Below, piece by piece: positions 17,693-50,008 of a stretch of 64,000 nt of DNA. Every line of letters starts with the position of its first letter. The first letter of the stretch is position 1. Location: the NCBI GenBank assembly GCA_965225945.1, contig CBDDBZ010000034.1, positions 352,280-416,279 of the forward strand, in the 5' to 3' direction. The translations under genes were made by a program, and so were the position numbers. This DNA is from Alphaproteobacteria bacterium (GTDB lineage: Bacteria > Pseudomonadota > Alphaproteobacteria > GCA-2731375). Below the pieces are notes generated by a model. The model was not told the origin of the DNA and ran no database searches. It saw only the letters and a program-made list of their open reading frames with translations.

Positions 17693-17918
17693 GCGGCTGG
17701 TCTCCATGTGACGAACCGTGCTAGCGTCGGCCTCGCCGAGCGTAGGGAAGCCGGTGCGGTCCGCGCGCGCGACTATTATGGACGTCGAGCGGGTCAATTC
17801 CGGCGCTGCCCCCGCAACTGTAGGAAGGAGGGCGCGGCAGAAAGCCACTGGTTCGGGAAGCACGATCCGGGACTGGGAAGGCGCCGCGTCCGACGACTTC
17901 GAGCCAGGAGACCTGCTC
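17693..17918 (+). promoter_or_regulatory. Cobalamin (B12) riboswitch
   Basis: AGGGAA-CCGGTG...AATTCCGG-GCTGCCCCCGCAACTGT...GCCACTG...CTGGGAAGGC...GAGCCAGGAGACCTGC in order, directly upstream of cob genes; boundaries approximate. Confidence 0.93.
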
Positions 17919-45618: not shown

Positions 45619-45862
45619 CGCAATAATTCCCCGATGGTAGAATGCGTAGTCGGCCTTTATTGGTGCATTCGACTAGGTTCGTATTCTCAGCAAAACTATA
45701 GCACCTTCGCGCAATCTCGTGAACTATGATCTTAGATTGACTCCTTCGGGTCATCAGCCAACGAAAGTCGAATCCTGTCGCCACATGCGAAACCTCCGGC
45801 AAAGTGGATATTGGCACTCGGATGGTCGCGGTAGGGAAGCGGGTTGCCGCGCTCCCCCCGCA

Positions 45863-45976
45863 GTTACGGTAGGAATGCGCATTGCTGCGCACCCCCCGCG
45901 GTTACGGTAGGAATGCGCATTGCTGCGCACCCCCCGCGGTTACGGTAGGAATGCGCATTGCTGCGCACCCCCCGCG
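45863..45976 (-). repeat. Three identical tandem 38-bp group II intron domain VI units
   Basis: CGCGGGGGGTGCGCAGCAATGCGCATTCCTACCGTAAC (minus strand) at 45863-45900, 45901-45938 and 45939-45976, with no spacers. Confidence 0.93.
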
Positions 45977-47857
45977 CAGATCCGGACGTGGTCGTTGAAC
46001 CATCCGGCTCCTACCTCGGGTGCTTGACGGCAAACCGCTGGTCCGGCCATGGGTGGCGGATGGAGGCGCGTGGCCACAGGATTTCGGTCATGCGCTCCAG
46101 TCGCTTCCAACTAAATCGGGCTCGCTGGGACCGGCGGCGTAGCGCCCGCATCCACCGGCGTTGCAGCCTGCGGAGGAACGCACGGATGAACCGGCCTGAC
46201 CCTGGGACGGCAAAGTAGTTGAGCCAGCCATTGCAGACTCGCCCCAGCCACCTACCAACTTCCCAGATGTCGTGGTGCCAGCGCTTGCGGAGCACCTCGT
46301 CGATGCGCGCCAGGGTCCTGTTGACCCGTTTGGCGACCGGTTTGCGACCAAGCCGAAAGCGTCCTCTCAGGGTCGTCGTGCAATAGTGCGTGAGGCCCAG
46401 AAAGTCGAAAGTCTCCGGCTTGCCCACCCCGCGCTGGCGCCGGTTCAAATCCGCGAACCGGCCAAACTCCACGAGGCGGGTCTTGTCCTGGTGGAGGCTG
46501 AGACCGAACCGGGCCAGCCTCTCCCGAACGTCGCGGAGGTACCGCTCCGCATCCCGCTTGTGTTGGAACCCGACAACGATATCGTCAGCGTAACGGACGA
46601 TGATCGCTTCGCCATCCGGGACGTTCGGGCGCCATTTCTTGTGGAACCACAAGTCGAGCACGTAATGCAGGAACACGTTCGCCAAGACGGGGGAGACTAT
46701 TGCCCCCTGCGGCGTGCCCATACCCGTATCTGCCCATGACCCACTCTCTATGACGCCGGCGTTCAGCCATTTCCGGATCAGACGGATGACCCGCCTGTCT
46801 CCGATGCGGTGCTCTAGGAACGTGATCAACCAATCCCGCGGGATCGTGTCGAAGTACGCCCGGAGGTCTGCATCGACTATCCAGCTGACCTTGCGCCGTT
46901 CTATCCCGAAGGCCAGGGCATCGAGCGCATCGTGCGCCCCCCGCCCCGGTCGGAACCCGTAGCTGAAGCCAAGAAACACCACCTCGTAGATCGGTGTCAG
47001 GATCACATCCACAACCGCCTTCTGGACGACCTTGTCCTCCAGCGCCGCGATCCCGAGCGGTCGTGTCCCCCCGTCCGGCTTGGGTATCTCTACCCGCCGA
47101 ACCGGCGGCGCCCGGTACGCTCCCCCTCTGTGCAGGCGCCGGTGCAGGTCGAGCAGGCGCTCATCCAGACCCTCGCCGTACATGTCCCACGTAACGCCGT
47201 CGACACCGGCTGCTGCGTCCTTCTTCAATGCGAAGTAGGCCGCACCGAGCGCGTCCGGCGTAATGTGGTGGAAGAGCGAAGTGAGACGTTCCTTCGGGTT
47301 TCTCTCTGCAGCTTTCCGTATCCGGGCCGCCGCCTGTGGCACGCTTACCCGACACTGTGTTCGGCGCGTGCTTTGGCAATCCGGATTCCCCTTGGTTGAG
47401 GCCCTTTCCTCCGGCGACTCCGCAGAAGCTCGCGCTCCCTTGTTCGCCGCCCTCACAGGTCGTACGGCCTCATCCGACTTCTTCAAACCGTTCATCATAG
47501 GCTTCGGTTTTCTCCATTCCCTACGCGGCCCCTTTACGACAACCGGGGCAGTTTGAAGACCTCCCAGGGTCCCAACAGAAGGCGTGCGAACGTGCATGGG
47601 TTCTCTGACACCGCGGGGCTCGCCGACATCTCACCAAAACGACGCCTGCGATATTGCCTTCGACCGATCTGAAAGCCTCGGCACCCCGGACCATCGCTTT
47701 TACGGTGCTCAATAGCCCTGCCCATCCATGCCGCTACCGACGCTTCGCCTGCCCCCTCACGGGAGCCAACGCACGGCTCGCGGAGAAACGTGGTTCGGTT
47801 ACTCCTTCGTTCCGGGGGACTTGCACCCCCTACCTTCTGCCAGTTCGCCTGGCGCAC
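45939..47857 (-). mobile_element. Inner group II intron, full length (bacterial class E-like by appearance)
   Basis: 5' end GTGCG at 47857; IEP in DIV; DV GAGCCGGATGGTTCAACGACCACGTCCGGATC at ~45979-46010; DVI with bulged A, ending AAC. Confidence 0.92.
46011..47498 (-). CDS. ltrA: Group II intron reverse transcriptase/maturase, no endonuclease domain
   Basis: AAGVDG, IPKPDGGTRPLGI, SYGFRPGR, GTPQGAIVSPVLAN, RYADD, FDFLG and GWLNYF; ends after domain X. Confidence 0.95.
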   Translation of the reverse strand: MMNGLKKSDEAVRPVRAANKGARASAESPEERASTKGNPDCQSTRRTQCRVSVPQAAARIRKAAERNPKERLTSLFHHITPDALGAAYFALKKDAAAGVDGVTWDMYGEGLDERLLDLHRRLHRGGAYRAPPVRRVEIPKPDGGTRPLGIAALEDKVVQKAVVDVILTPIYEVVFLGFSYGFRPGRGAHDALDALAFGIERRKVSWIVDADLRAYFDTIPRDWLITFLEHRIGDRRVIRLIRKWLNAGVIESGSWADTGMGTPQGAIVSPVLANVFLHYVLDLWFHKKWRPNVPDGEAIIVRYADDIVVGFQHKRDAERYLRDVRERLARFGLSLHQDKTRLVEFGRFADLNRRQRGVGKPETFDFLGLTHYCTTTLRGRFRLGRKPVAKRVNRTLARIDEVLRKRWHHDIWEVGRWLGRVCNGWLNYFAVPGSGRFIRAFLRRLQRRWMRALRRRSQRARFSWKRLERMTEILWPRASIRHPWPDQRFAVKHPR

Positions 47858-47910
47858 CAGACCCGAGCGGGCGCGATTGACGCACTCGGTTCCTCACCTG
47901 GCAGGTTCGC

Positions 47911-48295
47911 TCAAGAGTTTTGCCATGAGCGCGTGAACGTGACTGGCGGCAGGGGATGCCGCTTGAGGATTTCTGCCATCCGGTCCCAGTTCAGGCACCT
48001 GAGGCGGCTGCGGCGTGTAAGCCACTTCCGCCAGATGCGGACGACCTGGTAGCGGAACCAACCGAGACGTTTGCCATTTCCCGTCAGACCGTAATATGCG
48101 CAGTGGCCTCGGATCACCTTAGCGAGGTGATCCCGCTGAGCCTCGATCGGCAGGTGCCGGTGTCTCTTGCACCAGTCGTGCACCGATTTCAGCGCGCGGG
48201 CGAAGCGGCCCTTCGCCGTGATTTGACGAACGACGTCCTTGCCTTGCATCGACCGCCCCCAAACGTGGGTGAAGCCGAGGAAGTCGAACGTCGTG
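47911..48295 (-). pseudogene. C-terminal fragment of a second, divergent group II intron RT/maturase
   Basis: TFDFLGFTHVWG...IRGHCAYYGLTGN...WRKWLTRRS...HPLPP. Confidence 0.85.
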
Positions 48296-48310
48296 GCCGA
48301 CGCCATCCAG

Positions 48311-48489: not shown

Positions 48490-48630
48490 CCCCGAAGTAC
48501 AGCCTCCTTAGGGGTCATACCGACTAAAATACGCAACCGGCGAAAGTTGGTTCAGCAATAATTGTGAGTCGGACCCGATTTCCTTGGACACAGAATTGGT
48601 TTAATCGAAGTGTCCAAGGAGGACCGGAAC

Positions 48631-49041
48631 ATGACCGACAATTTTGAAAACAAAGTTGCTGTTGATGGGCCTGTGGTAAACGAGGGCGAGCTTGGCTCGT
48701 CCACGTTTTCCCCGGGCCAGGTTTCGCCGGCAGGCCCGCTGGGACTTGGCCAGCGGTGGACGGTGACGCGCAAGCGTGAGGTTGCCCTGCGGCTTTTGCG
48801 TGGCGAGCCGGTGGAACTTTTGTCGCGGCAGTTGGGCGTGGAGATTTTCCGGCTCGAGCAGTGGCGTGAGAAGGCGATCGCCGGGATCGATGCCTCGCTC
48901 AAGGAACGCAAGGGCGATCCGGTAAAGGCGGAACTGGACATCGCCATGAAGCGGATCGGGGAGTTGATCATGCAGGTGGAACTGCTGGAGGCCAAGACGG
49001 AGACGTCCGGCCCTTTGGGGCGGCGGAGGTCGCGGCGATGA
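48631..49041 (+). CDS. Transposase OrfA (HTH)
   Basis: RWTVTRKREVALRLLRGE...LSRQLGV, then a leucine-zipper-like tail. Confidence 0.8.
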   Translation: MTDNFENKVAVDGPVVNEGELGSSTFSPGQVSPAGPLGLGQRWTVTRKREVALRLLRGEPVELLSRQLGVEIFRLEQWREKAIAGIDASLKERKGDPVKAELDIAMKRIGELIMQVELLEAKTETSGPLGRRRSRR

Positions 49042-49949
49042 GTGCCGCCACCTCTCCCGGCACGGGTTTGGCCTACGGCCTCCAGCGGGTCTGTGCGGCC
49101 TGGGGTTTTGCCCGTTCCTCGTTCTACGCCATGAAATCCCGGCAGCAGGCCACCGCTGAGCGCCCACCAGCAAAGCGCCGGGGACCGAAGCCCTCGATCT
49201 CGGACGAGGCTCTGCTGGTGGCCATCGAGGCCGACCTGGAGGCATCCCCCTGGGAGGGCGAGGGACACCGCAAGGTCTGGGCTCGGCTTCGGGTCTGTCG
49301 TGGCATCCGTGTTTCCCGCAAGCGGGTGCTCCGGGTGATGCGCGAGAACAACCTGCTCTCGCCCCATCGCTGCCGCCGCCGTGGCGGAAATCCCCATGTC
49401 GGTGAGATCATCACCCATGCCCCCAACCTCATGTGGGGCACGGACGGCGTTCGGGTGTTCACGGTGGACGACGGCTGGGGCTGGATATTCACCGCCATCG
49501 AGCATTGGAACGCCGAGTGCGTCGGCTGGCATGTGTGCAAGCGAGGCGACCGCTTCGCCGCCCTTCAGCCGATCTCCATGGGGCTTGCGAGGCTGTATGC
49601 CTCGACCTCCGCCGGTGCGGCGCGGGGGCTGGCCTTGCGGATGGATCACGGCTCCCAGTATCTGTCGGACCACTTCACCAACCAGATCAAGTTCTGGGGC
49701 ATCCAGCCGTCCTACGCCTTCGTCGAACAGCCCCAGACCAACGGCGTCGCCGAGAGGTTCAATCGCACGCTCAAGGAACAGATCATCCATGGCCGCATCT
49801 ACCGCAACATCGCGGAGCTGCGGAACGCCGTCCGCGGGTTCGTCGAACAGTACAATGCCCAGTGGATCGTGGAGAAGAACGGCTACCTGAGCCCCGCTCA
49901 AGCTCGTCAGGCGTGGCACACCGCGATGTCACTCAGGCCCGCCGCATGA
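49038..49949 (+). CDS. DDE transposase OrfB (rve core)
   Basis: NLMWGTD, MDHGSQY and PQTNGVAERFNRTLKE; ATGA overlap with orfA. Confidence 0.9.
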   Translation: MSAATSPGTGLAYGLQRVCAAWGFARSSFYAMKSRQQATAERPPAKRRGPKPSISDEALLVAIEADLEASPWEGEGHRKVWARLRVCRGIRVSRKRVLRVMRENNLLSPHRCRRRGGNPHVGEIITHAPNLMWGTDGVRVFTVDDGWGWIFTAIEHWNAECVGWHVCKRGDRFAALQPISMGLARLYASTSAGAARGLALRMDHGSQYLSDHFTNQIKFWGIQPSYAFVEQPQTNGVAERFNRTLKEQIIHGRIYRNIAELRNAVRGFVEQYNAQWIVEKNGYLSPAQARQAWHTAMSLRPAA

Positions 49950-50008
49950 GACAAACTTGTGTCCAAGGAACCGGGTGCGATACATTCAGCAATAATTGCT
50001 TATTCGGA

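Follow-up and report, generated by a model that had tools for sequence, protein, structure and literature searches.

Stacked domain VI hairpins behind a single group II intron core: a probable scar of nested self-retrohoming

In an alphaproteobacterial genome we found a group II intron that carries three identical copies of its own 38-nt domain VI (DVI) behind a single domain V (DV), and we consider this stack likely to be the scar of nested self-retrohoming at the DV/DVI junction (a slash marks a junction throughout). The intron lies in a window of 64,000 nucleotides, which is the whole stretch of DNA that was analysed (assembly GCA_965225945.1, contig CBDDBZ010000034.1). Each insertion into a resident copy would produce the order body[body-DVI]DVI, and repeated insertion would produce n bodies followed by n DVIs. 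At the window locus at least one nested insertion would have taken place, and the surplus 1.9-kb bodies would have been lost by recombination between direct repeats; as recombination between bodies cannot remove the tails, one intact body and three DVIs would be left before the DVI of the host intron. The locus holds one body only, so that two are absent if each DVI came with one. The whole intron and its DVI stack lie on the minus strand, and their parts are the following.

47857, minus strand: 5' end of the inner intron, GTGCG (sequence).
45977..47857, minus strand: inner intron body of 1,881 nt, from GTGCG to the CUG of DV, tandemly repeated at other loci of the same genome.
47666..47671, minus strand: EBS1 loop CAGAUC, intron positions 187-192 (RF02005 alignment, covariation).
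46011..47597, minus strand: intron-encoded protein (IEP) of 528 aa, with RT and maturase (Pfam, phmmer).
45977..46010, minus strand: DV (32 nt, AGC triad, 2-nt bulge) and the linker UG (RF00029 alignment, fold).
45976..45939, minus strand: U1, a 38-nt DVI in normal register with DV (TRF, exact match, fold).
45938..45901, minus strand: U2, a 38-nt DVI identical to U1 (TRF, exact match, fold).
45900..45863, minus strand: U3, a 38-nt DVI identical to U1 (TRF, exact match, fold).
45862..45825, minus strand: U4, a divergent 38-nt DVI with 29 of 38 positions identical to U1-U3, followed by the flank CATCCGAG (sequence, fold).

The 38-nt unit is a canonical DVI. When folded alone it forms a 14-bp hairpin closed by a GCAA loop, with two bulged bases (UA) and AAC as its 3' tail; the bulged A lies 7 nt before the 3' end, and the energy of -21.4 kcal/mol (z -4.16) was not reached by any of 200 shuffles. 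U4 folds similarly (-22.7 kcal/mol, a value reached by 2 of 200 shuffles), and its basal stem is of the DVI type found in related introns (TGCGGGGGG..TCCCTACCGCGAY); most simply, U4 would be the DVI of a 5'-truncated host intron. TRF reports the stack at 45829-45976 with period 38, 3.9 copies, 93% matches and a score of 247. A preliminary description of this DNA had spoken of one DV, then three identical 38-bp units, then the 38-bp DVI of an outer intron, each unit being a complete DVI hairpin with a bulged A. The order was borne out in position and phase by TRF and by the sequence, and the hairpins by the folds, the units ending in ..AAC or ..GAC.

The full inner intron measures 1,919 nt, that is the 1,881-nt body ending in the CUG of DV plus one 38-nt DVI. 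Its ribozyme domains DI-DIV match Rfam RF02005 (group-II-D1D4-6) at 47823..47599 on the minus strand over the full model (1-225), with 163.7 bits at a gathering score of 49, while the RF00029 match for DV and DVI at 46012..45939 (minus), which corresponds to DV with U1, scores 35.4 bits (E 2.8e-4), under the gathering score of 40. The IEP contains RVT_1 (Pfam, E 1.7e-36, 126.3 bits) and a maturase domain, GIIM, at 21.6 bits, slightly short of the cutoff of 23, and its best phmmer matches in PDB are group II intron RTs (7uim at 1.2e-46); no endonuclease (HNH/En) domain was detected in the IEP by the Pfam scan. An RF02005 ribozyme with GUGCG, DV and DVI folds, an RT-maturase and an EBS1-IBS1 pairing are thus all present, as in bacterial RT-encoding group II introns. 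About 19-20 near-identical copies occur in the genome at varied insertion sites, and the ORF of 528-532 aa is intact in 12 of the 14 full-length ones. Judged by these features, the inner intron is an active-looking, endonuclease-less group II intron for which splicing and retromobility are predicted.

The inner intron sits exactly between the DV of another intron (..GGGTCTG) and U4. This host, and the mobile element upstream of it, are placed as follows.

47858..48306, minus strand: host intron remnant, consisting of a maturase-tail ORF (48306..47911) and a DV (about 47893..47858) ending GGGTCTG.
48552..49990, plus strand: IS3-like insertion sequence, upstream of the host remnant and outside the intron stack (Pfam).

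The remnant ORF of 131 aa matches GIIM below the cutoff (19.3 bits, E 0.0011) and shares 26% identity with the inner IEP at its C-terminus. By BLAST the remnant is single-copy in the genome, and its DV hairpin is supported by the fold. No intron-like sequence was found farther upstream of the maturase tail, and the host is a 5'-truncated remnant, distantly related to the inner intron. The preliminary description had the DVI of an outer intron follow the stack; U4 is indeed there, but the outer intron is represented by a 3' fragment (maturase tail, DV and DVI) rather than a whole element. The IS3-like element, which interrupts the DNA upstream of the remnant, has two plus-strand ORFs of the orfA/orfB kind (48610-49041 and 49038-49949) with HTH_Tnp_1 (weak), rve, rve_3 and HTH_21; a minus-strand ORF at 48552..49919 was rejected as a gene, since its Pfam scan was empty and the real genes are on the plus strand. 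Elsewhere in the genome, a 1.4-kb insert (C38 ~144739-146156) splits the outer body of the array called C38b below, and the 35 bases that abut the truncated body there match the edge of the window's insertion sequence. The window also holds a cobalamin riboswitch aptamer at 17744-17914 on the plus strand (RF00174, 82.7 bits).

The reason why this intron should invade itself lies in simple base pairing. The DI hairpin loop reads UUUCAGAUC in the RF02005 alignment, and CAGAUC, the EBS1 loop, is perfectly complementary to GAUCUG, the six bases which precede the intron's own DVI (linker and the 3' strand of DV). Each copy thus has the family homing site between DV and DVI, and in the window the self-insertion point lies between 45977 and 45976. 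The assignment of EBS1 is supported by covariation of loop and target sites in relatives: independent insertion sites in three genomes (the window's own assembly, G000; a congener, G028; and a second alphaproteobacterial MAG) end GATCTG/ or, with a G.U pair, GGTCTG/, a relative with 85% RT identity has the loop CGCAUC and sits at GATGCG/ sites, and another variant has the loop CCGAUC, one copy of the lineage standing at a GATCGG/ site. These sites gave no convincing EBS2 or EBS3. The match of the self-target to EBS1 is perfect because of an A opposite the triad G in DV; in the window DV, this A stands opposite the G of the AGC catalytic triad (46008 and 45981, minus strand), where U is usual. 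A third intron family in the genome likewise has G opposite A, and in the DV of the truncated host (~47893-47858) AAC faces G at the triad position. The self-site is probably suboptimal after the cut, because the base there is C, while T is the commonest in other flanks (12 of the 19 3' flanks compared start with T).

The same homing habit is seen outside the intron's own copies. The lineage inserts into the DV/DVI junction of other introns in the window and in contigs C24 and C37 of G000. In G028, one locus (L036) has the intron's DVI followed by the DVI of another intron, and a second (L040) shows the 5' junction only, with a DV-like flank. Landing at DV/DVI was also found at L048, at L125 and at 30 sites in a further genome, G305. 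The window locus and other such loci are therefore twintrons, with one intron inside another at a site fixed by the intron boundaries. In G305, where no self-nesting was found, the inner intron's own DV tail is one base off the occupied sites (CATGTCC vs CACGTCC), and it is possible that this base could matter as a putative IBS2 contact. Contig C24 contains a triple nest (~80900-80993, minus strand), which reads from another family's DV into the inner intron with its DVI, then TGCGGG, then the 5' end of a third family (GTGCGCCGG..). The area of DV and DVI seems to be a hot spot for several intron families.

The arrays that nested insertion would predict exist elsewhere in the same genome. With the 1,881-nt body as query, G000 (39 contigs, 6.27 Mb) yielded bodies that repeat head-to-tail every 1,881 nt exactly. 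With B for the body and U for the 38-nt DVI (U' and U'' being irregular units, and numbers in brackets giving the part of a body that is present), the loci read as follows.

C38a (contig C38, 555991-562657): contig end, B(1010-1881) B B B U U U U.
C31: exon, B B B(1-1623), contig end.
C37: DV of another intron, B B U.
C33: B(845-1881) B U U' U U U.
C38b: B fragment, 1.4 kb, B(1101-1881) B U U U U'' U U.
Window locus: B U U U, then U4.
C39: B(31-1881) U U U.
C35: contig end, B(1506-1881) U U.
C20, C24 and C34a: B U, three single copies.

There are 8 B/B junctions in 5 arrays, each reading ..CCACGTCCGGATCTG/GTGCGCC, and 27 U units; the DVI/DVI junction pattern has 17 matches, one of which is an odd chimeric piece in C33. 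A U followed by a B, that is DVI joined head-to-tail to a body, does not occur in this map of G000, nor does the junction of 3' end to 5' end that marks tandems of the groEL-intron type. The order B-B-B-U-U-U is what insertion at B/U of a resident copy predicts, whereas head-to-tail insertion or block duplication would give B-U-B-U. Array C38a is the clearest, with at least four bodies and exactly four DVIs, and of the 10 loci with an assembled 3' end, 6 have more than one DVI, namely 3, 5, 2, 4, 6 and 3. SNPs or indels distinguish the bodies inside each of the arrays C31, C37 and C33, whereas C38a has identical bodies; such differences would fit separate insertions better than block duplication. 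The predicted series of three bodies and three DVIs is therefore found uncollapsed at other loci of G000, and all junctions in the genome lie exactly at the predicted insertion point (DV-CTG/GTGCG and AAC/CGCGG). Repeated nesting is thus present in G000, and the window locus keeps the tails only.

Two of these arrays contain irregular sequence. In C31 the outermost body begins TTGCG and not GTGCG (G1 to T, position 260175) and has the most private SNPs, as would be expected of the oldest copy, no longer able to splice. In C33 (~304580-304671, minus strand), directly after the five-unit stack, a 32-nt piece interrupts the 5' region of another family; it resembles a boundary between two successive DVI units, with the last part of one and the first part of the other, and may be a recombination product or a local misassembly.

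How far the stack can be read as a tally is a separate matter. The preliminary description had taken the array to count three insertion events. The self-insertion origin is supported, but body and DVI numbers are unequal at most loci (2:1 in C37, at least 2:5 in C33, at least 2:6 in C38b), body counts being minima in the arrays that reach contig ends (C31, C35 and C38). Since the numbers mismatch, and since slippage or unequal exchange can shift the count once two units exist, the number of DVIs is a minimum or approximate record of insertions and not an exact one.

We also considered whether slippage or unequal exchange of the 38-nt unit alone made the three copies, with no nested insertion at the window at all. 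Short perfect tandem repeats do expand and contract, the unit counts are irregular (1 to 6) and unmatched to the body counts, and one array has a unit with a 2-nt deletion, another a unit with a changed first base (T). However, slippage cannot start the stack, because the base before GCGGGGGG is T in B-U-U4 and C inside the stack. A body-DVI-host DVI arrangement offers only ..AAC-T-GCGGGGGG and would give T-type junctions, whereas the two internal junctions in the window are C-type, AAC/CGCGG, as would come from insertion at DV-CTG/CGCGG. [quoted passage not shown] Repeat endpoints are not arbitrary, as unit boundaries throughout G000 coincide exactly with intron 3' ends. We thus regard slippage as an unlikely sole origin, although it may have changed two units to three.

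Another way to reach the same structure is arrival in one event, in which a composite RNA of body-DVI-DVI-DVI, spliced via a distal 3' splice site of a nested array, retrohomed into the host; the DVI stack would then function as a series of alternative 3' ends. The window and C39 are of nearly the same haplotype (one differing site over 1,851 shared nt), and both consist of a single body with exactly three DVIs. The C39 copy lacks its 5' end, beginning at position 31, and a 5' truncation of an intron copy marks a single abortive reverse-transcription event. In addition, T stands directly behind the unit that precedes U4, and T is also the base most often met after the cut elsewhere. On the other side, group II 3' splice sites are normally chosen near the DVI that docks beside DV, two loci are too few to exclude coincidence, and the contigs from RNA libraries, which cover the body, stop or fork at 45939 (the 3' end of U1), which is expected of any multi-copy repeat; two RNA runs yielded no spliced joint, although contigs of this kind can hardly be relied on to show one. 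Arrival of the whole stack as one composite RNA seems improbable to us, and nested insertion at the DV/DVI junction remains the preferred origin.

The preliminary description had left it open whether the bodies collapsed by recombination or in the hands of the assembler, so that the true locus could still have three tandem bodies. Arrays in C31, C35 and C38 end inside a body at contig ends, which means that the assembler had trouble with the repeat. Collapse by the assembler is nevertheless very unlikely, because three identical 1,881-nt tandem bodies are resolved elsewhere in the same assembly; the window locus lies well inside a 416-kb contig, and it would be odd to lose the bodies yet keep all three DVIs. 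Loss by recombination would then account for the single body. The read-derived evidence consists of k=31 Logan contigs, which cannot count 38-nt repeats. One contig from a sponge-metagenome run (X7) bridges the flank, U4, one DVI and the body at the window locus, skipping 76 nt with an ambiguity of 38; it stems either from a pre-expansion or single-DVI strain or from k-mer collapse of the 38-nt repeat. Contig depth in a further run, X1, is 12.7 for the flank and ~1,170-1,300 for the body, and in X7 it is 112 and 165-190, sums which may include other organisms. The body:flank depth ratios of ~100-fold in X1 and less than 2-fold in X7 hint at very different intron loads between samples, to which other organisms may contribute. 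Finally, lariat read-through or rolling reverse transcription of circles was rejected, as it predicts partial-DVI/5' end or 3' end/5' end junctions, which are absent from G000.

The preliminary description suggested looking for variable-length DVI arrays behind related RTs; arrays of 1-6 units exist within G000, but TRF found no DVI-type array at 78 loci with related RTs. In the congener G028, whose near-identical intron has the same self-site, all 7 loci have a single DVI, and in the second alphaproteobacterial MAG (99% RT identity, same self-site) so do all 5. No DVI/DVI junction occurs genome-wide in the two closest genomes, G028 and G027, or in 400 other genomes sampled from the class. A scan of JGI metagenome contigs for the DVI/DVI pattern gave 12 matches: nine were rejected as chance matches outside introns and two as introns whose 3' exon happens to begin CGCGGGGGGG, which leaves the two-DVI stack of a heterologous twintron, L125. 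In the ribozyme, only 1-2 DI substitutions separate G000 from the non-nesting relatives, and none of them is in the EBS1 loop.

Arrays of other designs were met among the relatives. Loci L055, L061 and L065, from one Alphaproteobacteria MAG (probably G305), are head-to-tail arrays with DVI/GTGTGCC junctions, in which a full intron is followed by 730-nt ORF-less copies, all within the DV/DVI junction of a different intron. Locus L118, from another MAG, is a head-to-tail doublet of 1,913 nt. Locus L072, from a Rhodothermales MAG, shows repeated nesting of a related intron at two sites that recur (heads at 895, 1792, 2388, 6086, 7405 and 8074), with one head-to-tail junction and TRF doublets of 596 and 669 nt; one of the nesting sites ends ..GGAGGTAACAACATG/, in ATG, and may be the IEP start.

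The preliminary description suggested that the four branch-point/3' ends could also permit alternative splicing or an exchange of DVI between introns. A broader reading can be offered only tentatively, as we hold it doubtful in its full extent. The homing site of this lineage would be the part of group II introns that is conserved best, namely the DV-DVI linker and the DV strand on its 5' side, by which it would parasitise other introns and, in G000, itself. The resulting concatemers of n bodies and n DVIs would contain only one contiguous ribozyme, the innermost copy; the distal DVIs would serve as alternative branch sites and 3' ends, and composite RNAs of a body with several DVIs would splice and retrohome as units.

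The genome is of interest in several respects. It shows intermediate and decayed stages side by side, as uncollapsed nests and as tail-only scars, together with a simple base-pairing reason for them, and the DVI stacks provide a readable though approximate footprint of past insertions. The loci also form a natural set of constructs, one core with 1-6 branch-site domains, for studying the choice of 3' splice site; if the stacked DVIs are used as 3' ends, this would be a natural system for both 3' splice-site choice and DVI exchange. A practical warning for annotation is that intron finders and short-read assemblers will be misled by DVI stacks and by tandem bodies.

Nested homing of group II introns is best compared with Methanosarcina acetivorans, where Dai and Zimmerly, in 2003, reportedly placed the homing site in related intron ORFs. 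A later review (Zimmerly and Semper 2015, PMC4424553) describes for that archaeon group II introns that home repeatedly and site-specifically into other group II introns, in nests of as many as five; homologous recombination deletes copies and so balances the insertions, and the intron is a perpetual homing site. The G000 arrays share with this system, as described there, nested homing and the loss of copies by recombination, the latter being our proposal here (PMC4424553). Unlike what that text describes, the site in G000 is the ribozyme's own DV/DVI junction, the genome is bacterial and identical copies are invaded. As this site splits the 38-nt tail from the body, loss of bodies leaves a visible DVI stack.

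Self-invasion is also described for the twintron cox1i1149g2 of lycophyte mitochondria, a group II intron within a copy of itself (Zumkeller et al. 2020, PMC7049729). It is a single nesting at intron position 652, and the copy inside is degenerate: it lacks the bulged A and is not seen to splice. On the same source, it differs from G000 in being organellar and in having neither arrays nor DVI stacks (PMC7049729). The groEL intron resembles our case in that several copies share one locus and the resident copy recreates an acceptable target. Its second copy, however, stands at the 5' exon/intron junction and gives whole-intron repeats joined 3' end to 5' end, whereas in G000 DV is joined to the 5' end; junctions of the groEL type are present in the relatives L055, L061, L065, L118 and L072. 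In C.te.I1 of Clostridium tetani, repeats of DV and DVI specify alternative 3' splice sites, as shown in vivo according to two reports (PMC3919590, PMC4424553). There too, 3'-terminal domains are repeated behind one core; yet those repeats, as the source presents them, include DV and each precedes a different exon ORF (PMC3919590), while here DVI alone is repeated and the units abut without ORFs. The C.te.I1 arrangement, a DV and DVI repeat with its own exon or ORF, was not found at our loci. A full-text literature search, outside which subscription journals largely fall, found nothing on DVI-only stacks or on homing into the DV/DVI junction. Thus, nested homing with recombinational loss is already known from M. 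acetivorans, and what appears to be new here is the self-site at the DV/DVI junction and the DVI stack as its probable scar.
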